A stretch of 64,000 nucleotides of DNA, taken from NCBI GenBank assembly GCA_016930415.1, contig JAFGGS010000016.1:149340-213339 (forward strand), read 5' to 3'. Shown piece after piece: positions 8,701-48,115 of this stretch (the stretch's first letter is position 1; every line of letters begins with the position of its first letter). The DNA comes from Candidatus Woesearchaeota archaeon (GTDB lineage Archaea; Nanobdellota; Nanobdellia; Woesearchaeales; SM23-78). The notes under the pieces are model-generated. The model searched no databases. It was not told the origin of the DNA and saw only the letters and a program-made list of their open reading frames with translations. The position numbers and the translations under genes were made by a program.

Positions 8701-10700
8701 TGAGGCTGCTCGCCTGGAGGTCCGAATATCTCCATCTCAGGGGCGCCGCTCATCTTCGCAGGGTATATGCTGAAGTTGCCGTCAGGAAGGCACCTATAAC
8801 CGCGCCTTATCTCTAAGGGATCATTTGAGCCGTTGTTCTGGATCTCATACTCGAACCTGTATTCGAAGCCAGCGTAGATCGAGCCGCTTATGTTGGCATC
8901 GCATCCCGATGAGGCATTGGCGTCGGTATCGACGTAATAATAGTATCTTCCTGTTTCAGTCCCGTTGCAGAGGAGGGATATCCCTGGGTTGGGAGGCGGG
9001 ACGCTCCTGTTGACCATCCCGATAACCCCTATTCCTATACCAAGGGCGTTTCCCATGTCTTTGACCATCAGGTTCCTTATGTCTATCTGGAGCGGCAGGG
9101 AGTCAGGCCCGTCCTCGAAGAGGATTACCGGAGGGCTTGGATCCATATCTCCGAATAAGTCTTTTTTCATGGCTATGAAAGGGTCGAGCGTCCCGTAGTT
9201 GCCTGTCAGGACGTCTATGTTCCCCCCGCAGGCAGAGTCTTTTGAGCAATCTTGCTGGTCGGCGCAGTCCAGGAGACCATCCCCGTCGTTGTCTTCCCCG
9301 TCAAAGCACTGCTCCCTCGACTCGTTGTGGCACATCATGAACTGGCTGCTCCAGTTCCCCCCGACTCCCTCGCAGTCAGTCTGGTTGAAGCAGCGGTACA
9401 TGTTGTCAGCCCTGCAGGTGAACATCGAGTTAGGGCCTGTCGTGGGGGCGGTTGACAAGTCGCACCATGATCCTCCGAAGAACGGATCGACGACCCACTT
9501 GCATCCTGATCCTGTCCCCAAGGGGTTGGGATAGGCTGAGTTCGAGCAGGTCTCGTTCGTGAAGCAGAACTTGCAGTTCTCATCGCAATTTCCCTGTCCG
9601 CCCATCATGAACTTACCCATGTCCTCGACGCACATCTTGTTCCCGCCATCATCCCAGGTCACTGCTTCAGGGGGCGGCATCGGCGGGGCCGGCACGACCA
9701 TGCATTTCCCTTTGGCGCCTGACTGGCAAGCAGGAGTGGAGTTGCAGGCTCCGCAGAACTGGTCGCAGGTCATCATGCTGAAGTCAGGGTCGCATAGGTT
9801 TTCGAACGCGCGCCAGATGCAGCTGTCAGCTCCGCTCACGTTGCTTGGGTTGCTGAGGCACTCAGATTCGCTGGTGTGGTCGTATGTGAAGCATGGGTGC
9901 TGGTTCTCGAACATGAAGTCTTTCGGGGCGTCGTATATGATCAAGTCGCCGCCTGTGCTTCCCAGCATGTCTTTAGGGTCGCCTGTGTTAGCTGGGTTCG
10001 AGAAGGTGTTCACTTCAAAGCTCAAGCCGTTCAAGCCTGCGATTGCGCTCTTGTTGACTGCGAATTTCATGACTGATGGATCAGTGCCTGTTCCGCAGGT
10101 CCAGTTGAAGAAGACTTCCACGCTATCGTTCGCAGGGAACTTGCTGTCGCTGACGTTGCAGTCGGCAGATGAATTGTGGTACCTGAACCTTGTTGAGTTG
10201 TCCCCATAGACCCATATCCTGTATTCTGACCCGTCACGGCAGCAGCCCGTGCAACCGGTCGACCGGTTGTTGTCTGCGTCGAACTCCACGACTACGCCCC
10301 AGTTCGAGGCGTTTTTCGTGCCTCCACAGAACTCTGTGTCTGAGAGGTTGGGCGCGATGACCATCCATGCCAGGTAATCATCGTCCATGTCTACCCACGA
10401 CGCTCCCAAGTCGTAGACTGAGTTGTTGTTGTCAGGGCAGCCTGCCCCTGGGAAGCTGTTGCCTGCTCCGAAGTCGAATTCGCTCACTCCTAGCTGCCTG
10501 CATCCAGGGCCGTTCGCAGCGTAGGGCGGGATCGTGCCGTCGAAGACCTTGAACTGGTTCCAGTCGATTGCGAGCGCAGAGCTAGCGCTAAGAAGCAGGA
10601 ACAAGAGCATGATAGTGCTTGTCTGAAGAATCGTTGATGATCGGTTTCTTTGCCTGTCGTTGGAACATAGTTTACCCTCAGAGTCATGTTCATACTTCAT
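5736..10700 (-). CDS. Giant (1654 aa) secreted Cys-rich surface glycoprotein with C-terminal TM anchor and His-rich cytoplasmic tail
   Basis: Signal peptide (LLFLLLSASSALA). Very many NxS/T sequons. MopE-like CxDxDNDGDGxxDC motifs and a G9 tract. C-terminal TM (IWGGIVAVVLLVGVLFWLF) followed by ...HHADHRHHEHHSHHESHGHEHHEKKD. Confidence 0.85.
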   Translation of the reverse strand: MKYEHDSEGKLCSNDRQRNRSSTILQTSTIMLLFLLLSASSALAIDWNQFKVFDGTIPPYAANGPGCRQLGVSEFDFGAGNSFPGAGCPDNNNSVYDLGASWVDMDDDYLAWMVIAPNLSDTEFCGGTKNASNWGVVVEFDADNNRSTGCTGCCRDGSEYRIWVYGDNSTRFRYHNSSADCNVSDSKFPANDSVEVFFNWTCGTGTDPSVMKFAVNKSAIAGLNGLSFEVNTFSNPANTGDPKDMLGSTGGDLIIYDAPKDFMFENQHPCFTYDHTSESECLSNPSNVSGADSCIWRAFENLCDPDFSMMTCDQFCGACNSTPACQSGAKGKCMVVPAPPMPPPEAVTWDDGGNKMCVEDMGKFMMGGQGNCDENCKFCFTNETCSNSAYPNPLGTGSGCKWVVDPFFGGSWCDLSTAPTTGPNSMFTCRADNMYRCFNQTDCEGVGGNWSSQFMMCHNESREQCFDGEDNDGDGLLDCADQQDCSKDSACGGNIDVLTGNYGTLDPFIAMKKDLFGDMDPSPPVILFEDGPDSLPLQIDIRNLMVKDMGNALGIGIGVIGMVNRSVPPPNPGISLLCNGTETGRYYYYVDTDANASSGCDANISGSIYAGFEYRFEYEIQNNGSNDPLEIRRGYRCLPDGNFSIYPAKMSGAPEMEIFGPPGEQPQKVSCMEDVAIVAIDKTDIGNPKGNIRLMVASADNNTAGNRANDTLLGPGNGGVYYTPGAVDFKPKDCFENPMACGTAFGIIGGGKFMPFEDCFIGSGDEDLDGLTDCQDPDCLMAPWCTGQAGAFNISQDKTAPTVFSVKAEAFHDFAFIHMTANEPTNLTITLHSSCSNNSARHTFIDVGMPSNPFDDYRPWHDFGIRNGDNDANSSQVSLSLSTTYFYKLKLCDQAGNCGTSACLNFTTQATPQQFNFKFDFVPPPNPMVNTTMIKIFNGSEYLNISSGFTQNTAYLKDAKLKFDNPEADWEIEFEGIDLAKAVTFNISTALNVTNSSGKTYVGIQNQKWLDMAQNLGVESVTIKIPGMVPGAKLEKCEESNLSNCIDVSAQADYNASTDKWTIPTSLGFSTYTIASTTYNLSFANLSIVNQTASPGVSMNVTLNLTNRENETRVFNLSVNYGSLNESQVNLSENESQIVKLTFINTTEGAYLAVVTATLYNDSSVQLTSYDDLGYIAFTVLNSALSVNFTLPESIVYLNRTLNVSINATGNNTVWFMNASGQNETYAGATTTTFTSDGSKTLIAYANDSYNNVRSSTVYPVIDTSAPNVTATSPSGSQSSSTTSVTLSATTDENATCKYDTADIAYENMTYSFTGNATSHTASKSVSSGSSYTYYVRCTDEYNHSMNSSSTISFSVATATVGGGGGGGGGAPSSQTTSAAQVMRMWTSIPPGTDQQFPISNQNIALTRIEFKLSSSAFSASMSVQAYDEKPEGLEEAGGSVYQYLQITKTNFDDSIISDDVKMRFKVLKSWISTLKLDRESVVLKRLVGGSWKALSTDEFSEDSESVTFEASSPGFSYFAISAKPLPEPVAEPIQENRSMSVETVDLTADEGAAEAQASPEGAPEEAAWENGSGLDLKLIWGGIVAVVLLVGVLFWLFMRKGREERQESSLPGHEEQPARGEDAVREVHHADHRHHEHHSHHESHGHEHHEKKD

Positions 10701-15066: not shown

Positions 15067-16347
15067 TCAGATTAAACATTTAAACGCAATTCTCTTACCA
15101 TTGGATTCTGTTGGAAACTTATCAAGATAATGGACATTGACTTTATCACAATCCAAGAAAAATTTTAATATCTCTACAAGTCGCTTCACTGAATCCTCTT
15201 TTGTAAACTCATCTTTAACAATATTCAAGTCAACCTCATCCAGAGATTTTTGCACAACCTGGAATTCATTGATGTCAAGATCCTCATCTTCAACTTGAGT
15301 TTTTATAAGACCTCCACTGATGTGCTCTCCTTTCCTGTTCTTCATAACCTCATAAGTCCTTCCAATTGTTATATTAAACTGTTTGAATGGATATGTATCA
15401 GTTAGTGATTTCTTCTCAATCAGTCCTATGTCACCAAGCTTATATCTTATCAGAGGCATAGCATAGCTTTCCAGAGCAGTTATGAGAACTTCTCCATTAA
15501 AGACCTCCACAATCACGAAATCATCTGAAGAGTGCATCACGTAGTTCTTGTCCTCTATGGCTATCGCAGGAATCTCGGTCGCACCATACTGGTCTATAAC
15601 TTGACAGCCGAACACACCCTCAATATATTTTCTCTTTTCCAGACGTTCTGATGAGGATATAATCAGCTTTGGCTTATGGATAGGAATCTTCTTCTCTTTT
15701 ATCAGCTTTGCGATATCATATAATGTTCCGCCAAAACCAAAAAGATAATCTGGCTTGAATTTGTTGTACTTGTTCTGGAACCAATCTATAATGTCAGCTT
15801 CTTTATACTGAAATGTGTCCAGAACTATCTTCCGGTTTATCCTATCAAGCAAGGCATAAAACATCCTGAAGATCACTGGCTTGTTCTTATAGATATCTCC
15901 TGAAAACCAAGCGGATTTTGCACCAATCTCAACTCCAGCGGACTGCCAATCTCGCATCAAGACTGCCTTTGAAATCGCATGATATCTCAAGTCCTTATAC
16001 ACCGTAACTTTATTCCCGGTCGAACCTCCCGACTTGTCTTTTATCGTCCTATAATTTTTAGTGCTTCGCAGCCGGTTAATGTCAGAAAGAATTGTTTTCT
16101 TATCAAGAACAGGAATCTTTTTTAGGTCCTCCAATGAAGCAACGATATTAATATCTTTATAGTGAGGAACAGTATTTTTGGCATGAATAAGCAAGTGGTT
16201 AAGTCTTGCAAGCTGATACTCTCTAACTTGACTTCGGGTCATATTTAGGTTATTGATATACCTGTTAAGATAAAAGAATCTCAGGTCGCCTCTGAGCAAG
16301 TAGACAGCCGGAAGGATAATTCTCCCAAATAAGCGATTCATAATCAT
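15067..16347 (-). CDS. CapK-like adenylate-forming enzyme (phenylacetate-CoA ligase family)
   Basis: DKSGGSTGNKVTVYKDLRYHA (adenylation Ser/Thr-Gly-rich motif) and VFGCQVIDQYGATEIPAIAIEDKN. Paralog of the 39369-40700 gene. Confidence 0.7.
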   Translation of the reverse strand: MIMNRLFGRIILPAVYLLRGDLRFFYLNRYINNLNMTRSQVREYQLARLNHLLIHAKNTVPHYKDINIVASLEDLKKIPVLDKKTILSDINRLRSTKNYRTIKDKSGGSTGNKVTVYKDLRYHAISKAVLMRDWQSAGVEIGAKSAWFSGDIYKNKPVIFRMFYALLDRINRKIVLDTFQYKEADIIDWFQNKYNKFKPDYLFGFGGTLYDIAKLIKEKKIPIHKPKLIISSSERLEKRKYIEGVFGCQVIDQYGATEIPAIAIEDKNYVMHSSDDFVIVEVFNGEVLITALESYAMPLIRYKLGDIGLIEKKSLTDTYPFKQFNITIGRTYEVMKNRKGEHISGGLIKTQVEDEDLDINEFQVVQKSLDEVDLNIVKDEFTKEDSVKRLVEILKFFLDCDKVNVHYLDKFPTESNGKRIAFKCLI

Positions 16348-17093
16348 CGCCTCACCTTTCTTAATACCATATAAAATGCAAACAAGACATTACTGTTGAT
16401 ATAACGCTTCCACATTCTTCTAGGTTCAAGAATGAATCTGTATAACCATTCCAGATTGAGACGCTGAAACAGTAAGGGAGCCCTTTTTCTAGTGCCCGCG
16501 TAGAAATCAAACGCGGCCCCGATAGAAGCAACCAAGGGCACTTTGAGCTTTAACCTGTTTTCATAAGTCCACTTCTCCTGTTTTGGAGCAGTCATTCCCA
16601 CCCAAAGGACATCTGGCTTTGCCTTATTGATTTTCTTGATTATATCACAGTTAACTTTCTTCTCAAAGGGGTATATGGGCGGCGATAAAGTATGGACTTT
16701 GATATTCGGATACTCGCGTTTCATGCGATTCCTGATCATACCCAAGACCTCCTCTGATGATCCCATGAAAAAGTAAGTGAGTCTCTCCTTATTGGCTAGT
16801 CCAGTCAGTTCCATGAAGAAATCCGGACCAGGAACCCTATGATGAAGCCTTGGTTTTATATTGAAAAGGCAAGTGGCAATTGAGATTGAAGCGCCATCAG
16901 GCAACAGAATGTCCGCGTTCTCCAAAGCCTCCCTAAAAAACAAGTCCTCCTGGGCGGCAACAAAGCTGTGGGCGTTAATAGTCTGGACTATATTCGTCTT
17001 TTTTGAGCGTTTTATCAGGCTTAAGGCTAATTTAGCCAGCTCTTCCCTCGATTCAGTATTTATCCTGAAATTATCAATTTTTAGCATTTTCAA
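16344..17093 (-). CDS. WecB/TagA/CpsF-family glycosyltransferase (GT26)
   Basis: LLPDGASI...KPDVLWVGMTAPKQEKW...IGAAFDFYAGTRKRAP...LEWLYRFILEPRRMWKRY matches the family signature. Confidence 0.75.
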   Translation of the reverse strand: MKMLKIDNFRINTESREELAKLALSLIKRSKKTNIVQTINAHSFVAAQEDLFFREALENADILLPDGASISIATCLFNIKPRLHHRVPGPDFFMELTGLANKERLTYFFMGSSEEVLGMIRNRMKREYPNIKVHTLSPPIYPFEKKVNCDIIKKINKAKPDVLWVGMTAPKQEKWTYENRLKLKVPLVASIGAAFDFYAGTRKRAPLLFQRLNLEWLYRFILEPRRMWKRYINSNVLFAFYMVLRKVRR

Positions 17094-19350
17094 AAGCAGT
17101 TATCAAATTATCATAGTTAACATCAGGAGTATATTTGTCAAGGTAATCTTTATAAGCATTTTTGCCCATCAGCACAGTATCATGCCTTATCATAAATAAA
17201 ACTTTCTGCTTCAAGTCATCAATGTTTCCAGGCTCAAAGAATTTGCCCGAAACACCGTCTTTTATCACATATTTCATGTTTCCAATCCTTGATGCCAGCA
17301 CAGGAGTTCCTACAGAGAACGCTTCAATCATAGAGATACCGAAAGTCTCATTCCATTCTGATGAGAATATCATGAATTTGGCTTTCCTGATGCGCTTCAA
17401 ACATTCATCATTAGGCTTTGGACCTTTATAGATTATATTCTTATGGCCCATCAGCAAGGACTTTAATGGTCCAGCACCATATACTTCCAATGGAAAATCA
17501 ATGCCTTTCCACGCAGCCACGAGAGTATGGATTCCCTTCTCAACAGACAATCTGCCGACGTAGATTGCAAACTTACCCTTCTTAAATGTTGGTTCCAAAT
17601 CTCCTTCTGTGAAATTTGGCTTGACAACCAGCTTTTTCTCATCATAACCGGCCTGAATAAATTTATCCTTGACAATCTGAGAATTTGGAAGGAAACAATC
17701 AATTCTGTTCTTATAAGTCTTATCATGAAGCTTCAACATCAAGGCCACGAGGAATGTTAGGATCTTTGAATTCCTATAGCACTTGTATTTGACCCCAATA
17801 AACGGATTGTTATGTTCCAGGCAGAGCTCACAGATCTTATTGTTCCTGAAAAGATAGGCTTTTGGACATATCAATCTGAAGTTTGGAAGCCTCTGAATAG
17901 TAGGCACGCCCTTACAAGCAAAATAAGCAGAAGGACTGATAAGAGGGAAGGTATTGTGGAAGTAGACTATATCAGGCAACCTATATTTTATCAGTCTCCG
18001 GATGTCAAGGTAAGTCTTCACAGAGAACAACGTGTTGAAAGGAAACAAGAGTATCTGAATCCAGTTATACCTCTCAGTCTCCTTATTGTCCCGGGAGTAT
18101 ACTATAACCTCATGTCCTTTTCTCTCCAAAAGATCCTTCTCCATCAAAAACATGGAATCCTCACCACCCCTGCTCACATACTGGTCATGAATCAAGAGAA
18201 CCCTCTGCTTCCTGACCTTAGAATAAATATCCATCAAGAGCGCATAGTTCTTCTCAGCAGTGTACTTTTCCTTGTACTCGTTGAAAGCATTCACACCCAT
18301 CTGCCTGGCTTCCTTAGGATGAGCAATCATCCACTCAACCTTCCTGCGAAGATCATCAGGGTCACCAGGAGAGAACAGCAGCCCAGTTCTCTTGCCATCA
18401 ATTATGTGCTTCATATTTCCAATGTTAGACGATATCACTGGAGTCGCTACCGAAAATGCCTCCAAGATAGTTTTAGGAAAACCCTCGTAGCATTCAGAAG
18501 ATAAGACCAGAAACCTGGCTTTCTTTATCATATCTAAACACTCTTCAATCGGTTTTTGACCATGATAGATCACATTTGGCTTATTCTCAACCAATTTTTT
18601 CAGAGGACCATCTCCAAAAACATGAATAGGAAAATCTATCAACTCCCAGGATTTAACCAGCGTAGCAATACCTTTCTCTTCAGATAATCTCCCTAAATAA
18701 ACTCCAAAATCTTCCTTTTTTGAACCGTGAGGAATTGGCTTCACAATAAAATTAGGCTTGACAATAATTTTATCTGCGGAAAAACCCGCTTCGATAAATT
18801 TGTTCCTGTTAAAATCCGTTAGAGCAATATAGTGGTCAATAACATTCATGAAAGTCTTCTTATGGATTTTTAGCATCAAAGCCAAGATGAAAGTCAACAC
18901 CTTAGAATGTCTATAACAACCGTATTTAACAGCACAAAAAGAATTTTTCTTCTTCAAGCACAATTCACAGACCTTATTATCCCGCAAGAACATGGCTTGA
19001 GGACAAATCAACCTAAAATTATGAAGTGTCTGGACAATCTTCACCTTATTATCTTTACAAGCATAATAAGCTGAAGGGCTAATGAGCGGAAAGAAATTGT
19101 GAAAATGAGCAATATCTGGCGTCTCTTTCTTAATCAGATGATCTAATTCTTTGTAAGTTTTTCTGCAATAAAGGGTTCTAAACGGAAATAATAGTTTCTG
19201 AAAAAAGTTGTAATTATGAATTTCCTCATTATCCCTCATATAAGTTATTATCTGATGACCCTGCGACTCAAGAAGCCTCTTCTCATCCTCAAAAACAGAA
19301 TCCTCTCCGCCTTTGTGTTGGTACTTGTTATGAATTAGTAGGATTTTCAT
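17074..19350 (-). CDS. Fused tandem GT4-GT4 glycosyltransferase (two complete GT-B units in one 758-aa ORF)
   Basis: Each half begins M-KILLIH/RVLLIHDQY-GGED. Each contains a Cys4 insertion (CPQAMFLRDNKVCELCLKK...C and CPKAYLFRNNKICELCLEH...C). Each ends with a GT4 E-x7-E region (FLVLSSECYEGFPKTILEAFSVATPVI and FMIFSSEWNETFGISMIEAFSVGTPVL). Confidence 0.8.
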   Translation of the reverse strand: MKILLIHNKYQHKGGEDSVFEDEKRLLESQGHQIITYMRDNEEIHNYNFFQKLLFPFRTLYCRKTYKELDHLIKKETPDIAHFHNFFPLISPSAYYACKDNKVKIVQTLHNFRLICPQAMFLRDNKVCELCLKKKNSFCAVKYGCYRHSKVLTFILALMLKIHKKTFMNVIDHYIALTDFNRNKFIEAGFSADKIIVKPNFIVKPIPHGSKKEDFGVYLGRLSEEKGIATLVKSWELIDFPIHVFGDGPLKKLVENKPNVIYHGQKPIEECLDMIKKARFLVLSSECYEGFPKTILEAFSVATPVISSNIGNMKHIIDGKRTGLLFSPGDPDDLRRKVEWMIAHPKEARQMGVNAFNEYKEKYTAEKNYALLMDIYSKVRKQRVLLIHDQYVSRGGEDSMFLMEKDLLERKGHEVIVYSRDNKETERYNWIQILLFPFNTLFSVKTYLDIRRLIKYRLPDIVYFHNTFPLISPSAYFACKGVPTIQRLPNFRLICPKAYLFRNNKICELCLEHNNPFIGVKYKCYRNSKILTFLVALMLKLHDKTYKNRIDCFLPNSQIVKDKFIQAGYDEKKLVVKPNFTEGDLEPTFKKGKFAIYVGRLSVEKGIHTLVAAWKGIDFPLEVYGAGPLKSLLMGHKNIIYKGPKPNDECLKRIRKAKFMIFSSEWNETFGISMIEAFSVGTPVLASRIGNMKYVIKDGVSGKFFEPGNIDDLKQKVLFMIRHDTVLMGKNAYKDYLDKYTPDVNYDNLITAFENAKN

Positions 19351-19356: not shown

Positions 19357-20406
19357 TCACTTTTCGAAACTTGATTTTTTAGGAAAAAGTTTATTCATCA
19401 AATTGTTAAATTGCACAATCGACTGTTCATTGAGTTTAATGGCTCTATCCTCTTGTATACAAAACATTTTCTGTTTTTTAAACTGGTCATATCTTCTAAG
19501 ATTCTCACCCAAATCATTCGACCAATAAAACATGTCTTTCTCAAATAAATTTACGACAAAAGCCGCCTTCTTCTGATAACATGCCATGTATGGCATTAAC
19601 TGGTTGTGGAGGAGATACATAAACTCCGACCTGAAATGACACCTTCTCGTCATCTCAAAAGCCTCCTTGTATCTTTTTTCGCATTCTCTCATCAGCGTTT
19701 TTGTCATTGGTTGAGGCCGATGAGGCGGAGTGAGTCTGAGCTCCTTTTTCTGAGTCTTATCAAGCAGAAGCTCAGTATTCCTGACAACTTTAGTGACTAG
19801 GTCAAAATCTATCGATAATGGACCTTTTTCGGCAATCTTTCTTCCCAAACGAGGCCTGATACCACCATCCGCAAAAAAGAAATCATCTGCATAAAAAGGT
19901 GCATTCACAAAATAATCATCATTTAGACACAAAAACTGCTCAGTCAAACCAGGAATCTCATGAACATATGACTCCATAGTGGGCGAGTTATACGATGGAA
20001 GATGTTTCTTATCTTTAAAAAGATCTTTATGAAAAACTATCTTCAGGCTGTTGTTCTTCAAGTTTAACCAATTGGGAATTTGTCCATCAGTCAGTATATG
20101 GATCTTATTCAAGTTCTTGAAATTCTTCTCAAGAGCACGTAAAGAGTACTTAAGCTCATTCATCGAGTTCTTAGTATAATCAAATTTATTCTTATAACCA
20201 AGCAAACTCATCCTGTGCCGTTCTCTAGTTCTCAACCAGGAAGGATCATTGAAGTCAGCCCAGAGATAAACTGCATCAATCTTGACATTTTTATCAGGAA
20301 TGCTTCGCTTAAAGAAAGAAGAGAGGGAGAATTTAATAGAGCAATATAAAAGAGACAGACAGTATCTAATTTTGTTTATAATTCTCATTAGCACATCACT
20401 TCTCAA
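19357..20406 (-). CDS. Stealth-family hexose-1-phosphoryltransferase (capsule phosphotransferase-like), copy 1
   Basis: CR1 IDAVYLWADFNDPSWLRTRE, CR2 MNELKYSLRALEKNFKNLNKIHILTDGQIPNWL, CR3 LCLNDDYFVNAPF. Confidence 0.65.
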   Translation of the reverse strand: MRSDVLMRIINKIRYCLSLLYCSIKFSLSSFFKRSIPDKNVKIDAVYLWADFNDPSWLRTRERHRMSLLGYKNKFDYTKNSMNELKYSLRALEKNFKNLNKIHILTDGQIPNWLNLKNNSLKIVFHKDLFKDKKHLPSYNSPTMESYVHEIPGLTEQFLCLNDDYFVNAPFYADDFFFADGGIRPRLGRKIAEKGPLSIDFDLVTKVVRNTELLLDKTQKKELRLTPPHRPQPMTKTLMRECEKRYKEAFEMTRRCHFRSEFMYLLHNQLMPYMACYQKKAAFVVNLFEKDMFYWSNDLGENLRRYDQFKKQKMFCIQEDRAIKLNEQSIVQFNNLMNKLFPKKSSFEK

Positions 20407-21436
20407 AACTCGATTTCTTAGGAAAAAGTTCGCTCATCAGTTGATTAAACTGTTTAATTGCTTTTACATTCAGATGAATTCCCCAATTCTCCTGTATACA
20501 AAAGGATCTCTGCTTCTTGAATTGGCCATATAATAATTTGTTCTTAGATAGGTCATTTGACCAATAGAACATGTCCTTCTCCATGAGATTTATAATAAAA
20601 GAAGTCTTTCCTTCATAATAATACAAATATGACAAAAGATGACTATGCAAAACATATCTCATCTCAGATCTAAAATGACCCTTACGCGTTACTTCAAACT
20701 CCTTAGGATACAAACATTCACATCTTCTCATAAAAGATTTCTTAAGAGGCTGAGGTCTGTGAGCCATAGTAAGTCGCGATTCGGGTTTAAAATCACGATC
20801 AAGAAGAAGATCTGAGTTCTTTATGGCAATAGTATGATGATCCGGATTCTCACCCAAATCGCCCTTTTCCGCAACCTTTCTTCCCAACCTCGGGCGAATC
20901 CCGTCCTTGATAAAGAAATCCTTAGCAGAACAAGGCGCATTCAAGAAAAAATCATCATTAAAATACAAAAAATCTTCTTTCAATCCAGGAATATTATGAA
21001 GATACGACTCAATGACCAAAGGATTGTACGATGGGAGATTCAACCTATCCTTGACAATATCTTTATGATCAACAATCTTTACCCGCGGATTCGAAACATC
21101 CAGCCATTCAGGAACTTGCTTATCTGTCACGATAAATATCCTGTTTAAGTCCTTGAAGTACATCTCCAACGCCCTAATCGAGAATTTTAGTTCATCCATA
21201 GGCTTCGGAAGGCGATGAATTTTGCTGTCAAATCCCAGATATCTCTTTCTATCACATTCTCTTTTCTTAAGCCAAGCTAAGTCAGTGAAATCAGCCCACA
21301 GATATACAACATCAATCTTTTCAGAAGGATTGACAAAAGGCTTCAAATTCACGAATGAAAATAAAATGAATTTTAGATAACAAAATAGGATTTTCAAATA
21401 TTGAAGAAAACAGTTAAGAGTGGTCTTAACGCGCAT
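20396..21436 (-). CDS. Stealth-family hexose-1-phosphoryltransferase, copy 2 (tandem paralog)
   Basis: CR1 IDVVYLWADFTDLAWLKKRE, CR2 MDELKFSIRALEMYFKDLNRIFIVTDKQVPEWL, CR3 LYFNDDFFLNAPC. Shares a conserved C-terminal LFPKKSSFEK with copy 1. Confidence 0.65.
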   Translation of the reverse strand: MRVKTTLNCFLQYLKILFCYLKFILFSFVNLKPFVNPSEKIDVVYLWADFTDLAWLKKRECDRKRYLGFDSKIHRLPKPMDELKFSIRALEMYFKDLNRIFIVTDKQVPEWLDVSNPRVKIVDHKDIVKDRLNLPSYNPLVIESYLHNIPGLKEDFLYFNDDFFLNAPCSAKDFFIKDGIRPRLGRKVAEKGDLGENPDHHTIAIKNSDLLLDRDFKPESRLTMAHRPQPLKKSFMRRCECLYPKEFEVTRKGHFRSEMRYVLHSHLLSYLYYYEGKTSFIINLMEKDMFYWSNDLSKNKLLYGQFKKQRSFCIQENWGIHLNVKAIKQFNQLMSELFPKKSSFEK

Positions 21437-22634
21437 CTTTTTTCACCCCGACAGATGATTTGGAGAGGTTTACCAATCCCGACAGATGAATCAAGAGGTA
21501 TAATTGGAAAGTCGAATAACAAAACGAGGCAGACATAAGACCATCAACGAAAATCACTATAAAAATAATCACCAAAAATGGTTTCAATTTACCATGCAAC
21601 CGCATAAGATCTTTTAAAAGATGGAATAGAAATTTCAACCAAATAAAAAGACCAATCAAACCCGCAGTTAGCAGTATTTCTAAGAACACATTGTGACTGT
21701 GCTTCACATAATCAGTCACAATTAATCTCGAACCTTTGAATCCGTAACCATAAACTGGACTCTTGGCAATGAAAGATAATGATGACAACCAAACTTCAGT
21801 TCTGCCTGTTAGCTCACCCAACGAATCAACAGATTCATCCCTTAGAACAAAATTTGAGATAGTATGAAGATCAGTATTTAAGGCAGACACGAATAACAAT
21901 AGCAACATCAAAACTCCAAATCCAGAAACGCCAACAGAAAATGCGCCCGCAATAATTGATTTTTTCTTCAGCAATAAGTAGAGAAAAGCCACAATAAATG
22001 CAAAATACATCGTTCTAGAATTCGTTAATATTAACCCCACAAAAGAAACAAAGGCCACGGGAAGGTATACAACTCTCTTTTCGTAAGAGAAGAACACTAT
22101 TGAAAACAAGCAAACAATTGCACAAAACATGGCCAAAAGATTCGGGTTTATGGCAAAATATCCCCCATCAAGCCTAGATGAAAAACTCAAATTTGCAAGG
22201 TTTGTTATGAGAGCGACAAAAATCAACAAGGAAAAAATGAAGTAGATAAAAACAACATTTTTCATACCATGTGAAAAATCATTGATTGAATAGAGAACAG
22301 CACCAAACAAAACAACAGCAAGAAATTCAAATATGTAGAAATAATTTACTAAAGGAAGGGCAAAAAATGTATTGACAATAATACCGATGAATGCATAAAT
22401 CCAGAAGAGATGAAATCCCATTTTAAAAGAAGTGGTAAGGAATTTTCTTGGCCTCATGATAATAAAGGACAAAGAGACCGCAAAGAGAATAAGCAAACCC
22501 ACCACATTAGGATCCGAAAATATCTGTACGAGTCCATACGACGATGGATCCCGATCTCCACTCAAAATGGATCTTCCTAGAAGTGGAACTAGAAATAAAA
22601 CAGACAAGACATAAAATTTCAAATTCTTATTCAT
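21426..22634 (-). CDS. Wzy/O-antigen-ligase-like polysaccharide polymerase (multi-TM)
   Basis: About 10 TM helices. Wzy_C-type motifs LTNSRTMYF and HNVFLEILLTAGLIGLFIW. Confidence 0.6.
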   Translation of the reverse strand: MNKNLKFYVLSVLFLVPLLGRSILSGDRDPSSYGLVQIFSDPNVVGLLILFAVSLSFIIMRPRKFLTTSFKMGFHLFWIYAFIGIIVNTFFALPLVNYFYIFEFLAVVLFGAVLYSINDFSHGMKNVVFIYFIFSLLIFVALITNLANLSFSSRLDGGYFAINPNLLAMFCAIVCLFSIVFFSYEKRVVYLPVAFVSFVGLILTNSRTMYFAFIVAFLYLLLKKKSIIAGAFSVGVSGFGVLMLLLLFVSALNTDLHTISNFVLRDESVDSLGELTGRTEVWLSSLSFIAKSPVYGYGFKGSRLIVTDYVKHSHNVFLEILLTAGLIGLFIWLKFLFHLLKDLMRLHGKLKPFLVIIFIVIFVDGLMSASFCYSTFQLYLLIHLSGLVNLSKSSVGVKKDAR

Positions 22635-23729
22635 TTTTATCAGCTACAATATGAATAAACATCTCGTTCAACTTTCTCACAGACGTATCTGTTAACTCTT
22701 GTTTTATTATTTCAATTGATCGCTTCCCACAGGAGAATAGCTTCCTTTTGTCAGCCAAAAATCTTCTAATCTTATTAGCAGAACCACCAACATCATCTGG
22801 ATTTATCACGATGCCATTCTCTTTCACTAAGTCTTCAGCACAACCCGCATATTTTGAGCAGATTACTGGAAGGCCATATGCCAAGGCTTCAGACACCACC
22901 AAACCAAAAGTATCCTGTCTAGTGAAAAAGATGAAGACACTCGCATCTTTATATATCTTATCTAGGTTTTGGGTAAATGATACAAAGGTTATGCCATCCC
23001 TCCCATTGTAGGACATCATCTCATCCACGAATTTCTTGTCAGAGTCTGGTTCTCCAACCAGCGTCAATGAGATGTTCTTAATATTCTTTCTTACCAAGAG
23101 ATATGTCTCAATGAGTTTATCGATGCCTTTTTGGCGTGAAATTCTGCCAACGTAGAGCAGGTTAATTTTCCGCGCTTCAGAATATTTTTTTTTAGATACT
23201 TTAGTAACACAAAGAGAATCAATAGTTAATAGATTCACATAGATCTTTTTTACGCCAATTGACTCGTAATATCTCCTAGTCTCACTCGAGGGAGCCCAGG
23301 CAGCCGCAGCAATTTTCGCCATGCACCTACGTATAAGCTTCTGGAAAAAGTTGCGTTTTGATTCTGATTGCCTAGTAAGCTCTCCCCATAGCACAATCTT
23401 CTTTCTAAAAAGATATGCCCAGACGAATATCTGCAGAAAAGTAAGTCCATATCCTCCACAAACTACAATGTCAGGATTGTAAGTAGATAATCTTGGGATG
23501 GCGTTCCATGAAATCCAAGACCTCTTAAACATTTTAAGAATAAGAGTGTTGAGAGTTTCATAATCAAATTTAATGGAGCTCTTATCGATCGACCAATGAC
23601 GAAAAGCACTCCCCTCCCTCTCAAAGAAAACCTTGAAGTCCACAACCTTGCTTCCCTCCAACTTATTGAAGAGACCAACCCTATAGGGCGCAATAATGTT
23701 AGTTATAAATGCGACTTTTATTTTCTTTC

Positions 23730-23745
<16 letters not shown>
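22627..23745 (-). CDS. GT4 glycosyltransferase
   Basis: LLYVGRISRQKGIDKL...FTRQDTFGLVVSEALAYGLPVICSKYAG is the GT4 signature. Confidence 0.75.
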
Positions 23746-26993
<3,248 letters not shown>

Positions 26994-27252: not shown

Positions 27253-30200
27253 TTATCTCCACTTCTTGACCGCGAAGTAGCCTATAACAAGCGCGACTAC
27301 GAGTCCCAGGGCTGCCACGAACCACAAGTAGCTTACAGAGCCAGTCTCCTGGGCTCCGATCGCCTGTCCTGTGACCGATTCAAGGCCAGAAGCCTCTGCC
27401 AGGTCCCGTGGGTCTATGCTGTTCTCAAGGCTTGAATCCTTATCCTGGGTGAGAGAACTCACCAAGTCGACGTAGGTTGAGTTGTCCTCTACCGAAGCAT
27501 TGCATGGCCTAGTCTCCTTCCTGCTCTCGTTCTCGTAGAGGCAAGTCCTGTACTCCTCGCTGTTTATGCAAATAGACCAGTCGGTGCACACCAGCTGGGT
27601 TGAACAGTCAGTCGCTGCCGAGCAGTTATCTTCGCTGGTGGAAGCGGCGCTGTATGAACTCAGGAAGCTACCGCCGCCCCCTCCTCCACCGCCGCCTGAA
27701 GACGAGACAGTGCAGGCCCCACAGTCAACTGCGCATGAAGAGCAAGTCTCGCCTGCCTCGCACACGAGGTCTCCGCAGTCAGTGACTGGAATGACGCTCA
27801 AAGTAACCATGTTCGTCTGGGCAGACCTGTTGCCGCTCGAAGCAGTGAAGTAGAGGGTCTCGAATCCGTACCAGTTAGCTGGCGCAGACACGTTCACAAG
27901 GCCATCCTCTCCAATGCCGATCACCAGGACCGATTGGTTCCTGACAACGCTGTAATTCAAGGTCGAATTGAGCGGGTCATCGAAGCAGGATGAGAGGTCG
28001 TAAGCCCCCACAAGGGAGGTGTCCTCGTTCCATGACTTGTTAGGCAGGTCGCATCCGGTTATGTTACAGTCGCAGTCAGACTCACAGCTTCCGCAATCCT
28101 CGCCGGCATCGCACACTCCGTCGCCGCAGTAAGGAAGAGCCACGCAAGTCCCCCAGCCGCACTCTGAAGTGCAGGTCCTGACACCGTCATGGCCTCCAAA
28201 GTCAACGCAGGACTGGGTCATGTTAGGCTCGCAAGACTCGTTGCCGTTCACGATGCCGTCTCCGCAGAACTCCAAGACAGTGTGTTCGCAAGTACAACCA
28301 GAGAGGCAAGTGTCGAGCGTCGATGTGTTGCTATCGTCGCAGTCAGCATCTATAACGCACTCTGCAGAGCAGTTGAGGTCGCATGAATGAGTCATCGTGT
28401 CGTTGCTCTCGCTACAAGTCCCAGTAGGTTCCTGGCACTCTGAGGTGAAAGGCGCAAGGTAGTCGAACGTGAACGGGTTGTCGTCAGGGCTGTTATCGCA
28501 GGTATTGATCCCGAAGACGTCGTAAGCAGAGCAGTCGACAGGAGTGCCAGGGGCGCAATCACCCAAGACGCAGGTCTCAAGGCCATCGCACGCCAAACCA
28601 TTATCACAGTCAGCATCGAAAGTGCAGTTCACGTCAGGACAGACTCCACAGTCAGCCTCGCAAGATGAACAGTTCTCATCCGCGCCGCAGACCCCATCAC
28701 CACAGGATGAAAGCGGCTCAAAGCTGCAAGAGCAGCCAAGGCAGGAATCAGCAGTGCTCTCGTTGCCGTCGTCGCAGTCAAGGTCCGAGACGCACGCTGC
28801 GCCGCAGATGCCGACGTCGCAGGTGTGCGTGATGTTCTCATCACCCACAGTGCACTCGCCAGAAGGCTCTTCGCACACAGAAGTGAATGCAGCCCTGTAG
28901 TCGAGCGTGAACGGATTGTCATCAGGCGAATAAGTACAGCTCTCGACATCAATTATGTCGTAAGCAGAGCAATCGACAGGAGTGCCAGGGGCGCAAGCGC
29001 CTAGGCTGCAGGTCTCAAGGCCATCGCACGCCAAACCATTATCACAGTCAGCATCGAAAGTGCAATTCACATCCGAACAGACCCCGCAATCAGTCTCACA
29101 AGACGAACAATTCTCATCGCCATTGCAGACCCCATCGCCGCAGAAAGGCAAGGCAGGGCACTCACCGCAATCCGCAGAGCAGGACGAACAATTCTCGTCA
29201 AGGTCGCAGACACCATCTCCACAGAACCATAAAGGCTCATGCAAACAGACACATCCAACACAAGCGTCGCTAGTTGAGGTCAGATTATCATCACAATCAA
29301 TGTCAGCCTCACATGTAGCAGAACAGTTTTCAATGCTACATACGTGATAGATGGTATCATCGCCGACGGTGCACTCGCCGGAAGGCTCTTCACATACAGA
29401 AGTGAATGCAGCCCTGTAATCCCACGTGAATGGATTAGTATCCTCAGGGATGTTCCTGCAGTCAGCAATCTCGAATATGTCGAAAGCGCTGCAGTCAACA
29501 TCTTCACCTGCTATGCAAGAGCCAAGATCGCAGCTCTCCAAGCCGTTGCAGGCCAAGCCGTCATCGCAATCCAAGACAACGGCGGACTCGTTCCAGACGC
29601 AAGCCCCTGCCAAGCAGACGTAATCATCATGATAGACAGAGGATCCGACGCAATAGTCATTATCGAAAGGATCGCAATCAGAGTCCTGGAAGCAAGCGCA
29701 ATCCTCATCGATAAATCCATCGCAGTCATCGTCGACCATGTTGAAGCAGGTCTCGTTCATTCCAGGGTTGACCAGGAAGGCATCATCATCGCAGTCGCCA
29801 TCCTGGGCGACATAACCAGCGGTCAAGCTGCAAGTCAGCAGCAACTCGCTGGAGTTCCCGAAGGAGTCATTGTCGAAGTCCAGGAACAACGACAAGAGCA
29901 GGCCTTCATCCACGAGCCCGTTGCAGTCATTATCCAATCCATCACAGAGAGTCTCGTTGGACTCGTAGGATGAGACATTCGAATAATCATCAGTCCAGTT
30001 CCCTGCAATGCATGATTGGGTGCTATTCACACAGACCCCGAGCTGCAGGAAGTTGAAAGGCGCAACCTCGCCAGAGCCATCAAGAGTGAGGTCAGAGCAA
30101 TCATTATCTACGCCATCGCAAGTCTCGGTGGCGTTTGGATTGATAAGATAATCCAGATCATTACAGTCCACAGGGCCGCAGAGATCGCCATCAGGAGAGA

Positions 30201-44050: not shown

Positions 44051-45082
44051 ATGGAGAAGGAGACCAAGAATTTCATCATCAGGGGGATCATCCTAGTAGG
44101 AGTCTTCCTGGCAGTGACTTTCCTGTTCCGCTTCCCGATCGACTTATTCCATTTGAAGCTCTTCAGGATGACAGAGGCCACCCGCGTCTTTAGCAAGAGC
44201 GACGGCCTCAAGATATTCGCTTTGGCAGGCATCTTCTTCACGCTCTACTTCCAGCACAGGATCGCGAAGGTCAGGCAACAGGGCCAGCCCCTTTGGAGGA
44301 CCATCCTCCTTGGCGTCGCAGGCTTCCTACTGGTCGCGGGCTACTATGGCCTTAGATATCTCAGCAATGCATACCAGGTGACAGAGGGACCTTGGTTCTA
44401 TGCGATCTACGCCTCCAGCTTGGTTGTCCTGACAGCGTCTTTCCTGTTCTTCTCCGCAAGCGTATTCTCGCCAGGCTATATCATGAGATTCTTCCTGGAA
44501 TTCCGAAAAGAGCTGGCAGTCACTGCGATCGCATCGGTCGTGGCCTATAACTTACTAATGCTCTTCCAGGAGCAGTGGCTCTTCTTCTCATCAACAGTCA
44601 CCTTGCTCTTAGTGAAGCTCTTCAATCCGCTCTTCCCTACAGTGTATGATCTTTCAGGACCATCGCCTTTGTTGAAGGTTGCTGACTTCACAGTCTCTAT
44701 CGGGCCTCCTTGTTCTGGCATCGAGTCCATGTTCCTATTCGTCGCGTTCTCGCTTGGCATCTTCGCGCTTGATCATAAGAGGCTCAAGAAGCTTCTTTTC
44801 TTCGTCGTTTCGCTCGTCGGCTTCGTCGGCGTCTACTTCGTGAACGTCATCCGTCTCTTCCTCCTCATGCTTGCCGGCATCTATGTCAGCCCCGAGTTCT
44901 CTGTCGGGCTCTTCCATACGAACATCGGCTGGCTCTTATTCGTAATATACTTCCTTTGTTACTATTTAGTAATGAAAAGATTTATATATGTTGATGACTC
45001 CACCAGGAAAGAGAAAGGAGCTCAAGCCGCAGAGGCATCACCTGCAGAAGAGGAAGGAGAAAAGAAACTGAGGACAAGATGA
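44051..45082 (+). CDS. Exosortase/archaeosortase-family integral membrane transpeptidase (EpsH-like)
   Basis: About 8 TM. Candidate catalytic Cys in LLKVADFTVSIGPPCSGIESMF (Cys 221). Conserved Arg in VYFVNVIRLFLL (Arg 268). Downstream FHTNIGW. This spacing and order match exosortase/archaeosortase signature regions. It sits in an EPS locus, as bacterial epsH does. Confidence 0.6.
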   Translation: MEKETKNFIIRGIILVGVFLAVTFLFRFPIDLFHLKLFRMTEATRVFSKSDGLKIFALAGIFFTLYFQHRIAKVRQQGQPLWRTILLGVAGFLLVAGYYGLRYLSNAYQVTEGPWFYAIYASSLVVLTASFLFFSASVFSPGYIMRFFLEFRKELAVTAIASVVAYNLLMLFQEQWLFFSSTVTLLLVKLFNPLFPTVYDLSGPSPLLKVADFTVSIGPPCSGIESMFLFVAFSLGIFALDHKRLKKLLFFVVSLVGFVGVYFVNVIRLFLLMLAGIYVSPEFSVGLFHTNIGWLLFVIYFLCYYLVMKRFIYVDDSTRKEKGAQAAEASPAEEEGEKKLRTR

Positions 45083-46407
45083 GAGAAGGGTTCTTCCATG
45101 GAAAGAAGAAGTGGTTCTTCGCGCTGATATATTTCTCAGACGTATTGGCATACTTGTTCTCAGCAGTCGCGTCCACACTCCTGACGCGCCTGGACTACAC
45201 GATGCCTTTCTACCAGCGGTTCTTCCTATTCGGCCTGGTGATAATAATCCTGGCGTACTCTAGCTACGGCCTCTACAAGGACAAGAGAAACCTCTTCGAC
45301 GACAATGATTTCATGGGAATACTTTACTCAAACGCAATGGCCCTCTTTGTCCTCGCAGTCTTCATAGTCATGTTTGACCCGAGAGATACTGCGCTCTGGA
45401 TCGCGATGACCCTCACACTCACACTCACAATACCAGTCACCACAACTGGAAGGATGATACTGAGCAAGATAATCGCGCTCTTCAGGGAGCATGGCTATGA
45501 CGTGCGAAACACCATCATCTTCGGAGATGCAGATAGTGAACTGATCGACAAGCTAAAGGACGAGCACCTAGGCTACCACCTGACTGCAGTCACCAAGGAC
45601 AAGAACGTGCTAAAGAAGCACCTGAAACACGCAGACGTGGTGTTCCTGAAGATGGAGTCAGTCGACGAATCAATGTTAGAACTAATGATAAACAACGACC
45701 ACATCCAGTGGAAGATAATCTCATCCATCCTCAACCTGGTGATAGACCCTGTCGCGATGGACGAGTTCAAGGACTACCCCATAATCAACGTCTCCCACAG
45801 GGAGGACAGCAGAGGCTACCTGCGGGTCAAGAGGCTGATGGATATAGTGCTCTCAGGAGCAGCCATAGTCATCCTCTCGCCGCTGCTCATAACCATCGCG
45901 ATCGCAGTCAAGCTAGGATCCCCAGGCCGGGTCTTCTACAAGCACGAGCGCCTGGGCAAGAACCTAAAGCCATTTATGCTCTACAAGTTCAGGTCTATGA
46001 GAAAGAATGATGACTTCCTTAAGAACAAGGAGTACAACAACGAAGTCAAGGGCATCTTCAAGATGAAAGACGATCCAAGAATAACTCCAGTCGGCAAGTT
46101 CATAAGGAGAACCTGCGTGGACGAACTAGGACAGCTCATAAACATCTTCAAGGGAGACATGTCGATCGTAGGCCCAAGGCCTCACCTGCGGACCGAGCTT
46201 CCTGCCTTCAAGGGCTGGAGGATGGCGAGATTCAAGGTAAAGCCAGGCCTGACCGGCCTTTGGCAGGTGAACGGCCGCCACGAGCTAAACTTCGACAAGG
46301 CCATGCTCTACGACGTCTACTACGTCAAGCACATGTCCCTTCTGATGGACCTCAAGATCATAATAAAGACGATCCCCGCCATACTGATGACTAAAGGATG
46401 GTATTAA
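45079..46407 (+). CDS. Polyprenyl-phosphate sugar phosphotransferase (bacterial sugar transferase, WbaP/EpsB-like initiating enzyme)
   Basis: Multi-TM N-terminal domain, then RVKRLMDIVLSGAAIVILSPLL...GSPGRVFYKHERLG...FRSM...GDMSIVGPRPHL...LKPGLTGLWQVNGR are canonical Bac_transf motifs. Confidence 0.85.
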   Translation: MREGFFHGKKKWFFALIYFSDVLAYLFSAVASTLLTRLDYTMPFYQRFFLFGLVIIILAYSSYGLYKDKRNLFDDNDFMGILYSNAMALFVLAVFIVMFDPRDTALWIAMTLTLTLTIPVTTTGRMILSKIIALFREHGYDVRNTIIFGDADSELIDKLKDEHLGYHLTAVTKDKNVLKKHLKHADVVFLKMESVDESMLELMINNDHIQWKIISSILNLVIDPVAMDEFKDYPIINVSHREDSRGYLRVKRLMDIVLSGAAIVILSPLLITIAIAVKLGSPGRVFYKHERLGKNLKPFMLYKFRSMRKNDDFLKNKEYNNEVKGIFKMKDDPRITPVGKFIRRTCVDELGQLINIFKGDMSIVGPRPHLRTELPAFKGWRMARFKVKPGLTGLWQVNGRHELNFDKAMLYDVYYVKHMSLLMDLKIIIKTIPAILMTKGWY

Positions 46408-47272: not shown

Positions 47273-48115
47273 ATGTCTGATAACGAGATTGATTTTCTGG
47301 AGTACCTGGATGCACTGAAAGAGAACTGGATTGCGGCGACTGTCGCGTTCCTAGTGGTCTTCGGGCTTGTCTTGGCCTACACCTTGACGACCACGCCGAT
47401 GTACGAGTCAAGAAGCCTCGTATTCGTGGCAAGCCAGGACCAGGCGAGCTTCCTCTTGGGAAACGCTGCTCCAAAGACCATATCTGACCTGGAGACACAG
47501 AAGATAATCCTGCAGAGCACAAGCGTCCTGGGGCCAATCTACGCAGAGCATCCGATCGACAGCTTCGAGCTCAAGGTCAACACCATCAAGAACTCGAACA
47601 TCCTGGAGATAGTCGTGACCTCGGACTCCGCCTTGAACGCGATGAACATCGCGAACAAGATCTCAGAGTCATATGAGAGCTACAACAAGGACCTAAGGAA
47701 GGACGAAGCCAACGAGGTCATAACCTTCATCTCAGAGCAGATCGACCTCTACAACCTCGAAGGAGAGACCTTGAGCGCAAGGAAGGTGTACTATGACTCG
47801 CTCGGGGAGAACATCACTAACGAGCAGGCACTTGAGTACGAGACCCTGAAGAGGGAGATAAACGCCAAGAACAAGATCTACGATTACCTCTTGAACAAGC
47901 GCGAGGAAGCAAACCTGGTGGTAAGCCTAAGGAGCGGGAACGTAAGGATCCTAAGCCGCGCAGAGCTGCCAATAGCGCCTGTCCGGCCCAACGTGCCATT
48001 GAACATAGCGCTTGGCCTCATCCTGGCCGCGGGAGCAGCGATAGGCGCAGCTTACGCAGCCAAAACCATCATGCCACCTCAGAACGGCAAGAAGAAGAAA
48101 CTGTTCAACTGGTAA
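47273..48115 (+). CDS. Wzz-like polysaccharide co-polymerase (chain-length determinant)
   Basis: N-terminal TM after ENWIAATVAFLVVFGLVLAY. Coiled-coil periplasmic region. C-terminal proline-rich motif plus TM: ELPIAPVRPNVPLNIALGLILAAGAAIGAAY. An AGGAGG Shine-Dalgarno lies 11 nt upstream. Confidence 0.7.
   Translation: MSDNEIDFLEYLDALKENWIAATVAFLVVFGLVLAYTLTTTPMYESRSLVFVASQDQASFLLGNAAPKTISDLETQKIILQSTSVLGPIYAEHPIDSFELKVNTIKNSNILEIVVTSDSALNAMNIANKISESYESYNKDLRKDEANEVITFISEQIDLYNLEGETLSARKVYYDSLGENITNEQALEYETLKREINAKNKIYDYLLNKREEANLVVSLRSGNVRILSRAELPIAPVRPNVPLNIALGLILAAGAAIGAAYAAKTIMPPQNGKKKKLFNW

Follow-up and report, generated by a model that had tools for sequence, protein, structure and literature searches.

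Two adjacent Stealth genes in the window

The window analyzed here is a 64,000-nucleotide stretch of a 395-kb contig (JAFGGS010000016.1) that NCBI labels Candidatus Woesearchaeota, and our subject is a pair of genes in it that a preliminary description had proposed to be tandem paralogs of the Stealth family within an archaeal glycan cluster. As reported there, two adjacent open reading frames (ORFs) of 346 and 349 aa lie on the minus strand. The upstream paralog, StlB (20396..21436, minus strand; 346 aa from an ATG start), is a predicted Mg2+-dependent nucleotide-sugar:glycan sugar-1-phosphate transferase, and the downstream paralog, StlA (19357..20406, minus strand), has 349 aa when counted from a TTG codon. 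Both were annotated by NCBI as "hypothetical protein" (JW826_04420, JW826_04425). The two sequences were 55% identical across 334 aa (E 2e-128).

The ATG at 20388 (343 aa) is the more likely start of StlA than the TTG (349 aa), because NCBI calls that start and a GTGAT Shine-Dalgarno-like motif is found 6 nt upstream of it. This ATG is located 7 nt past the StlB stop. The StlB ATG likewise has a Shine-Dalgarno-like motif (GGGGTGA) 6 nt ahead, and StlB overlaps the stop of the preceding wzy-type gene by 11 nt. A scan for sigma-70 promoters and terminators gave no excess over the shuffled expectation, the sigma-70 model being unsuited to an archaeon.

Membership in the Stealth family

StlA and StlB were confirmed as genuine members of the Stealth family, whose conserved regions (CR) 1 to 4 are represented in Pfam by PF17101, PF11380, PF17102, and PF17103. 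Stealth_CR2 (PF11380), the model of the approximately 100-residue, most conserved Stealth region (Sperisen 2005), matched residues 81-182 of StlA with 118.7 bits (E 1.7e-34) and residues 80-179 of StlB with 117.8 bits (E 3.1e-34), both about threefold above the gathering cut-off of 39.4 bits, so the two proteins did not fall into an unrelated family. The matches to CR1, CR3, and (StlA only) CR4 were below threshold and in the correct order, and no NCBIfam model matched StlA or StlB.

The signature motifs quoted in the preliminary description were all literally present, namely VYLWAD in both copies and, one per copy, NELKYSLRAL/DELKFSIRAL, IHILTDGQIPNWL/IFIVTDKQVPEWL, and NDDYF/NDDFF. Their labelling as CR1 to CR3 did not hold: the four motifs represent CR1 and three sub-blocks of CR2. 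The CR1 motif reads IDAVYLW in StlA and IDVVYLW in StlB, the family motif being IDVVYTF or very similar, and D44, V46, Y47, and W49 of CR1 correspond to conserved family columns. The true CR3 is HRPQP...FRS at residues 229-261 of StlA, and the true CR4 is FCIQE...FPKKSSFEK at residues 312-349, of which FC...FPKKSSFEK aligns family-wide; C316 of CR4 was kept in 157 of 167 sequences. In a sequence search against the PDB, the significant matches were Stealth enzymes only (E 1e-23 to 1e-33), consisting of CpsY of Mycobacterium tuberculosis (8j2n) and GNPTAB of zebrafish, human, and fly. The best match of StlB was CpsY (8j2n, E 1.8e-33), and that of StlA was GNPTAB (7s6n, E 1.7e-29).

Predicted fold and active site

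Structure modelling covered StlA. The AlphaFold2 model, with a predicted local distance difference test (pLDDT) score of 87.8 and a predicted template modelling (pTM) score of 0.87, consisted of an alpha/beta domain preceded by one long helix at the N-terminus (residues 2-31). When this model was compared with the PDB by Foldseek, CpsY and GNPTAB structures made up all of the top 13 matches (E 1e-22 to 8e-18), led by CpsY (E 1e-22, TM score 0.89, identity 24-26%); generic GT-A transferases came next after the Stealth enzymes, at approximately 1e-5. As modelled, StlA thus has the Stealth variant of a GT-A-like fold.

Mutagenesis showed that E305, N322, D324, and R419 matter in CpsY (PMC10668966), and Glu389, Asn406, Asp407, Asp408 (Mg1), His956 (general base), and Arg986 are important in GNPTAB (PMC9388126). 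The equivalents of all these residues were identical in both copies. The conserved catalytic positions are E145, N162, D163, D164, H229, and R259 in StlA and E143, N160, D161, D162, H226, and R256 in StlB; the CR3 pairs H229/R259 and H226/R256 correspond to His956/Arg986 of GNPTAB, and the Arg to R419 of CpsY. From these residues, both copies are predicted to be enzymatically active, Mg2+-dependent sugar-1-phosphate transferases. A pseudoenzyme copy was considered and ruled out, the catalytic residues being kept in both.

The two closest solved relatives differ from the pair outside of this core. CpsY, the best structural match, shares the four residues named above, but it carries an extra N-terminal region of 200 residues and is not encoded in a Wzy operon of the kind found in the window. 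GNPTAB (7s6n, 7sj2, 7s05, 7dxi) has the same catalytic domain and residues, for which a one-step mechanism has been proposed with His as the general base and Arg and Mg2+ stabilizing the phosphates (PMC9388126), whereas it is a 1256-aa multidomain protein of the Golgi lumen that acts on the N-glycans of lysosomal hydrolases. Relative to GNPTAB, the window pair has Gln for Asn1151, Gln for His959, and Tyr for Gln992, and Arg322 is lacking in both copies.

StlA and StlB also differ from each other at positions equivalent to GNPTAB substrate contacts. At Ser385, a donor-sugar contact, StlA has Ser and StlB Pro; at Ile388, which stacks on uracil, they have Met and Ile; and at the acceptor-positioning residues Arg322 and Asn1153 they have Thr and Leu, and Asp and Asn, respectively. 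As far as such substitutions can be read, they weakly favour two different linkages over redundancy.

Gene island around the pair

The pair belongs to an operon-like run of ten minus-strand genes (25028 to 15067) with overlaps or gaps of at most 7 nt, in the order Wzx-like protein, GT4 glycosyltransferase, Wzy, StlB, StlA, fused double GT4, GT26, and CapK/PaaK-like protein, with Gmd and an Fcl-like protein preceding. The Wzx-like flippase candidate (23730..25028, minus strand) is a multi-pass membrane protein assigned from its position and hydrophobic sequence, and it is followed by the GT4 glycosyltransferase (22627..23745, minus strand; PF00534, 103 bits). Directly upstream of the pair is a Wzy-type polymerase of the Wzy_C/O-antigen ligase superfamily (21426..22634, minus strand; PF04932, 68.6 bits, cut-off 31.7), and this adjacency of Wzy and Stealth genes is kept in four related loci (L001, L083, L085, and L088).

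Directly downstream is the fused double GT4 (17074..19350, minus strand), a 758-aa protein made of two 379-aa halves with two Glycos_transf_1 stretches. Then come the GT26 glycosyltransferase of the WecG/TagA/TarA type (16344..17093, minus strand; PF03808, 181 bits; TIGR00696, 140.9 bits, cut-off 69) and, as the last gene of the island, a CapK/PaaK-like adenylate-forming enzyme (15067..16347, minus strand), for which the NCBIfam AMP-dependent ligase, F390-synthetase, and PaaK models all scored below cut-off. Gmd (25944-26993, minus strand; TIGR01472, 585 bits, cut-off 415) and the Fcl-like reductase/epimerase (24997-25941, minus strand), whose best match was the GDP-L-fucose synthase model (296 against a cut-off of 500), are predicted to supply a GDP-6-deoxyhexose, probably GDP-L-fucose.

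Further components of such a pathway were present elsewhere in the window. The only polyprenyl-phosphate hexose-1-phosphate transferase of the window, the initiating phosphoglycosyltransferase (PGT; 45079..46407, plus strand; PF02397, 214.5 bits; TIGR03025, 330.6 bits, cut-off 295.55), and a Wzz/GNVR chain-length-determinant-like protein (47273..48115, plus strand; PF02706, 39.9 bits, cut-off 25.5; PF13807, 48.8 bits, cut-off 27.7) belong to or follow a second cluster, and genes for UppS and BacA lie upstream.

Among the scanned ORFs of at least 150 aa in the 64-kb window, no ABC-transporter domain was detected, and no KpsMT-type exporter or KpsCS-type gene was found beside the Stealth pair. 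These results bear on whether the pair might work as capsule polymerases. CsaB and CsxA of Neisseria meningitidis are Stealth enzymes that make hexose-1-phosphate phosphodiester bonds; they are processive polymerases encoded in ABC-transporter-dependent (group 2) capsule loci, in contrast to the Wzx/Wzy/Wzz setting of the window. The best-characterized bacterial Stealth enzymes are polymerases of this kind, and two copies could in principle alternate to give a two-sugar phosphopolymer, so that StlA and StlB might each synthesize poly(hexose-1-phosphate), alone or alternating. We consider this decidedly unlikely: ABC-transporter and Kps-type export genes are missing from the ORFs of the window, Wzy directly adjoins the pair here and in the related loci, and Wzx, Wzz, and several glycosyltransferases fit a heteropolymeric repeat unit. 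The preliminary description, whose interpretation was supported in its essentials, had called the pair capsule sugar-1-phosphate transferases. Single additions of sugar-1-phosphate are preferred over a poly(hexose-phosphate) polymerase because of the Wzx/Wzy/Wzz context and the lack of ABC-transporter genes.

The embedding of the pair between Wzy and glycosyltransferase genes also counts against a GNPTAB-like role, in which StlA and StlB would modify glycans attached to proteins, for example on the large secreted proteins encoded beside the cluster. In favour of such a role, no solved structure is closer to StlA in sequence than GNPTAB, the islands have large secreted proteins at their sides, and the N-terminal helix (residues 2-31) could anchor in the membrane. 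In prokaryotes, however, nucleotide-sugar donors are found in the cytoplasm, the hydrophobicity of the N-terminal segment is only moderate and the segment contains lysines (19-residue Kyte-Doolittle maximum of 1.0 in StlA and 1.6 in StlB), and the accessory domains of GNPTAB are absent. A role in protein glycosylation is therefore very improbable.

Relatives and probable duplication of the pair

An exhaustive homologue search returned 6195 representatives at E<=1e-3 and 116 at E<=1e-30. The nearest relatives were 44-47% identical to the Stealth pair, and identity to ordinary bacterial Stealth proteins was approximately 25-32%. In a bootstrapped neighbour-joining (NJ) tree, StlA and StlB were sisters inside a clade with 100% support that also contained the two closest homologues (P0003 and P0024), and this clade was nested in a clade of 17 with 98% support. 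Outgroup identities were equal for the two copies (47.2/47.3% and 46.2/46.2%).

The contig (L001) carrying the closest homologue, P0003, encodes Wzx, Wzy, a single Stealth protein, and, up to the contig end, the first 38 codons of a GT4 gene, which match the beginning of the window's double GT4 at 68% identity. The ancestral order was therefore probably Wzy-Stealth-GT4, with the Stealth gene duplicated in place. The choice between local duplication and separate acquisition, left to phylogeny in the preliminary description, is thus resolved in favour of local, in-place duplication, as judged from the NJ sister relationship and this single-Stealth order.

The neighbouring GT4 gene has a comparable history. 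The halves of the double GT4 were 52% identical (195/375, E 4e-141) and thus closer to each other than to single-domain bacterial homologues (39-40%; L010, L083). Judging from these identities, the adjacent GT4 appears to have been doubled and fused in place at a depth similar to that of the Stealth pair (52% and 55%, respectively). Duplication of Stealth and GT4 together, as one segment, was rejected, the order being Stl-Stl-GT4-GT4 and not Stl-GT4-Stl-GT4; the Stealth and GT4 genes would therefore each have been duplicated separately.

Tandem Stealth genes are common in bacteria and not peculiar to the window: of the 84 bacterial loci fetched, 16 had between two and four Stealth genes in a 10-kb span. 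This frequency and the identical catalytic cores, which would permit the same chemistry, are what a redundant pair would have in its favour, or a pair in which one copy is non-catalytic or regulatory; only one phosphodiester linkage per repeat unit would then be formed, with the duplicate serving for dosage or as a scaffold. Against it, every catalytic residue is kept in both copies and neither resembles a pseudoenzyme, the copies have diverged by 45% with differences at the equivalents of the donor-sugar and acceptor contacts of GNPTAB, and the doubling of the GT4 to a similar depth points to a larger repeat unit more than to a dosage effect. Redundancy is accordingly regarded as unlikely.

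Archaeal host and probable bacterial origin of the island

The host is archaeal, as indicated by marker genes on both sides of the glycan cluster, and with the full polysaccharide gene set between them the "archaeal glycan cluster" of the preliminary description was borne out. On one side are an RpoB fragment that stops behind Rpb2 domain 3, as encoded by a split rpoB (195-1706), and a tRNA-Lys(UUU) gene (2034-2146, minus strand) interrupted at the canonical position 37/38 by an intron of 39 nt; on the other are Cbf5 (55229-56224), with DKCLD, TruB, and PUA domains, and an exosome RNase PH subunit (63230-63994). The tRNA gene was detected by Rfam and missed by ARAGORN in its default mode.

The island is compositionally foreign. 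GC content at third codon positions (GC3) was 0.35-0.43 in island genes (0.50 in the WecG-like gene) and 0.58-0.75 in housekeeping genes, with Gmd and the Fcl-like gene near the host value (0.62). Such a sharp compositional break, together with the fact that the taxonomically labelled relatives are all bacterial, would also be expected if bacterial DNA had been misjoined to an archaeal contig during assembly or binning. Low-GC glycan islands are, however, usual in real genomes. The archaeal markers flank the island on both sides within one contiguous sequence of a 395-kb contig, the two low-GC islands of the window would need four false junctions, and the contig of the closest homologue, an independent assembly, repeats the same step from 52% to 32% GC around its Stealth gene. 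A chimeric island is thus highly improbable.

Horizontal acquisition from bacteria is probably the simplest reading of the island, given its low GC3, the all-bacterial best loci, and a Stealth+GT4+GT26 module that recurs in bacterial loci (L010, L083). A scan of species-representative genomes gave at least 600 pattern matches, and the best 80 loci were all bacterial, led by marine Verrucomicrobiales metagenome-assembled genomes at 35-40% identity; the P0023 cluster was likewise assigned to Verrucomicrobiales. In a broad profile search with 2631 matches, the named ones among the best 120 were all bacterial except StlA and StlB. In L010, L083, and L085, a GT26 gene accompanied members of the Stealth clade. 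With 45% divergence between them, the duplicates are old but still have a foreign composition. Duplication may therefore predate the transfer, or low GC may be maintained as in bacterial O-antigen loci.

Three relatives (P0212, P0214, and P0208) were found in bacterial contexts with exosortase EpsH, EpsI, PEP-CTERM, and bL28 genes and the order WecG-Stealth-Wzy. The bacterial loci L085 and L088 had the order WecG-Stealth-Wzy_C, the last as a fusion with TPR, beside genes for exosortase EpsH, EpsI, and PEP-CTERM proteins. This arrangement echoes the sortase-family gene of the window and hints that the Stealth clade moves together with exosortase-linked exopolysaccharide systems.

The flank of L001 showed no similarity to the window outside of the island, and no tRNA genes were found on L001, L002, L083, L085, or L088. 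The 52% GC flank of L001 (positions 1-5000) encodes orphan proteins only, and a 506-aa protein there matched itself alone among 5.8 billion sequences, so that the host of L001 is apparently very poorly sampled. A literature search for archaeal Stealth proteins returned nothing relevant. The view of the preliminary description that Stealth enzymes are uncommon in archaeal annotations agrees with all of these observations.

Predicted function of the pair

The best overall explanation, to which we assign a probability of about 0.6, is that StlA and StlB are two Stealth sugar-1-phosphate transferases in a Wzy-dependent pathway for a phosphodiester heteropolysaccharide, and that they are derived from bacteria and were duplicated in place. 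As read from gene content, the PGT would initiate the repeat unit, which would be extended by GT26, the GT4 enzymes (the fused double GT4 among them), and StlA and StlB. Each Stealth enzyme would transfer sugar-1-phosphate from a nucleotide sugar, most likely UDP-hexose or UDP-N-acetylhexosamine, with release of the nucleoside monophosphate. The acceptor would be a hydroxyl of the growing polyprenyl-diphosphate-linked oligosaccharide on the cytoplasmic face of the membrane, giving a phosphodiester bridge. The Wzx-like protein would then flip the unit and the adjacent Wzy would polymerize it, under the chain-length control of the Wzz-like protein, into a surface heteropolysaccharide with phosphodiester bridges. 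It is in this conditional sense that we infer the donor and acceptor sugars, a distinct linkage per copy, the lipid-linked repeat unit as acceptor, and the direction of transfer.

The best functional analogues are WfgC of Escherichia coli O152 and Shigella dysenteriae 12, the Haemophilus parainfluenzae 20D enzyme, and streptococcal WcwK and WefC, which are single-transfer Stealth enzymes of Wzy-dependent O-antigen or capsule loci (PMC3989065, PMC5111408). They are single-domain proteins of approximately 310-350 aa with CR1-CR4, their genes stand among those for Wzx, Wzy, and glycosyltransferases, and each is assigned one sugar-1-phosphate linkage within the repeat unit; for WfgC the linkage is alpha-GlcNAc-1-P-6-Glc in both E. 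coli O152 and S. dysenteriae 12. The window pair differs from them in its archaeal host, its two diverged side-by-side copies, and its CIQE motif, the likeness being drawn from protein size, conserved regions, and gene context.

Several observations weigh against the proposed pathway. Outside of CR2, the Pfam scores for StlA and StlB were 18.5 and 15.3 bits for CR1 (PF17101, cut-off 27.2) and 19.2 and 17.5 bits for CR3 (PF17102, cut-off 24.2), and CR4 (PF17103, cut-off 27.4) gave 19.5 bits for StlA with no match reported for StlB. The sister pairing of the copies had a bootstrap of just 74, in an NJ and not a maximum-likelihood tree. Regarding the other components, the Wzx candidate of the island matched Polysacc_synt_3 weakly (E 0.016, below cut-off), a Wzy_C protein may instead be a ligase or an O-oligosaccharyltransferase and this one had a weak TfpM match, and the PGT is located 20 kb away in the second cluster, its role for the Stealth island being assumed. 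With respect to bacterial origin, P0003 and P0024 may belong to an archaeal sub-lineage, and given the matching GC step of L001 there may be an exchange pool among related archaea. Function in this Stealth clade is predicted from sequence and model.

The active site adds two points of the same kind. At the positions of His959 and Gln992, which contact the donor sugar in GNPTAB, the pair has Gln and Tyr, and the donor sugar is therefore not predictable from sequence. In addition, CR4 reads FCIQED in StlA and FCIQEN in StlB, so that the canonical tetrapeptide C(L/I)ND is replaced by CIQE in both (Asn to Gln, Asp to Glu). CLND/CIND is "almost universally conserved" in CR4 (Sperisen 2005), and Asn1151 of GNPTAB ligates Mg1 and hydrogen-bonds the transferred beta-phosphate, its mutation causing a 200-fold loss of activity (PMC9388126). 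The replacement could alter activity or the metal/donor geometry. In the hidden Markov model alignment, however, Gln occupied the CR4 Asn column in 26 of approximately 167 nearest family members, including the entire closest clade, which marks CIQE as a feature of the sub-family, not as a lesion.

A more specific version of the proposed pathway, which we put forward tentatively and hold to be possible at most, is that the two copies form two different sugar-1-phosphate linkages per repeat unit, yielding a teichoic-acid-like heteropolymer through a bacterial-type Wzx/Wzy system. The set of linkages would then have arisen from the duplication of both Stealth and GT4 genes, and CIQE would fit a non-canonical donor such as the GDP-6-deoxyhexose of Gmd and Fcl. 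We know of no chemical demonstration of this class of phosphodiester, teichoic-acid-like glycan in archaea.

The pair belongs to an enzyme family that is well understood and has a routine gene arrangement, its host being the unusual part; it is not a new kind of system, and the understanding of how Stealth enzymes work is unchanged. Its value lies in a confident function for two genes left as hypothetical proteins and in placing in an archaeal genome a family of which the founding description and the labelled relatives retrieved were bacterial or eukaryotic. It also leads to the prediction that a DPANN-type archaeon displays a phosphodiester surface polymer made by bacterial machinery gained through horizontal transfer, a point of relevance to the ways in which episymbiotic archaea of this type construct and diversify their surfaces. 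In the CIQE sub-clade, nature has varied the CR4 Asn, which in human GNPTAB binds Mg2+ and the phosphate being transferred, so that the role of this residue can be studied there. Of most interest are the possible archaeal phosphodiester-linked heteropolymer and the CIQE variant.

Second polysaccharide cluster and secreted proteins

A second complete Wzx/Wzy-type polysaccharide cluster was found at 35670-46407 (plus strand), followed by the Wzz/GNVR gene at 47273-48115 (plus strand). Its order is Wzx, GT4, Wzy, CapK paralog, GT4, radical-SAM/SPASM protein, GT4, exosortase/archaeosortase-family protein, and PGT, the radical-SAM/SPASM protein (41944-42921) being placed between glycosyltransferases. 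The Wzx of this cluster was a clear match, unlike the candidate of the Stealth island. GC3 was 0.30-0.34 in the first half of the cluster and host-like (0.54-0.72) in the second. The CapK/PaaK/F390-synthetase-like paralogs, one per cluster (15067-16347, minus strand, and 39321-40700, plus strand), were 38% identical, with no Pfam match and sub-threshold NCBIfam matches only; their presence in both clusters suggests acyl or amino-acid decoration of both polymers.

Three large secreted proteins, of 1632 aa (27253-32151, minus strand), 896 aa (32271-34961, minus strand), and 1164 aa (50115-53609, minus strand), have a common tripartite C-terminal tail in which x(I/V)TGxxxG is followed, after approximately 10-15 residues, by a transmembrane helix and then a group of basic residues (as in ...PITGFSVGSRSGWFEGFNLFWLFVLVALAIAGYASFRVFRK). 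The exosortase/archaeosortase-family gene (44051-45082, plus strand), which adjoins the PGT gene, scored 55.9 bits with TIGR04178 (cut-off 23), and its best specific model was archaeosortase C, below cut-off. The three shared tails matched none of the NCBIfam sorting-signal models. Together with the sortase, they look like an undescribed "ITG-CTERM"-type sorting signal.

A further secreted protein of 1654 aa (5736-10700, minus strand) had no Pfam domain and ended in a C-terminal transmembrane helix and a His-rich cytoplasmic tail (...VHHADHRHHEHHSHHESHGHEHHEKKD), the composition of which hints at a metal-binding role. The 1632-aa protein, its neighbour, contained MopE-like Cu-binding motifs and FG-GAP repeats.

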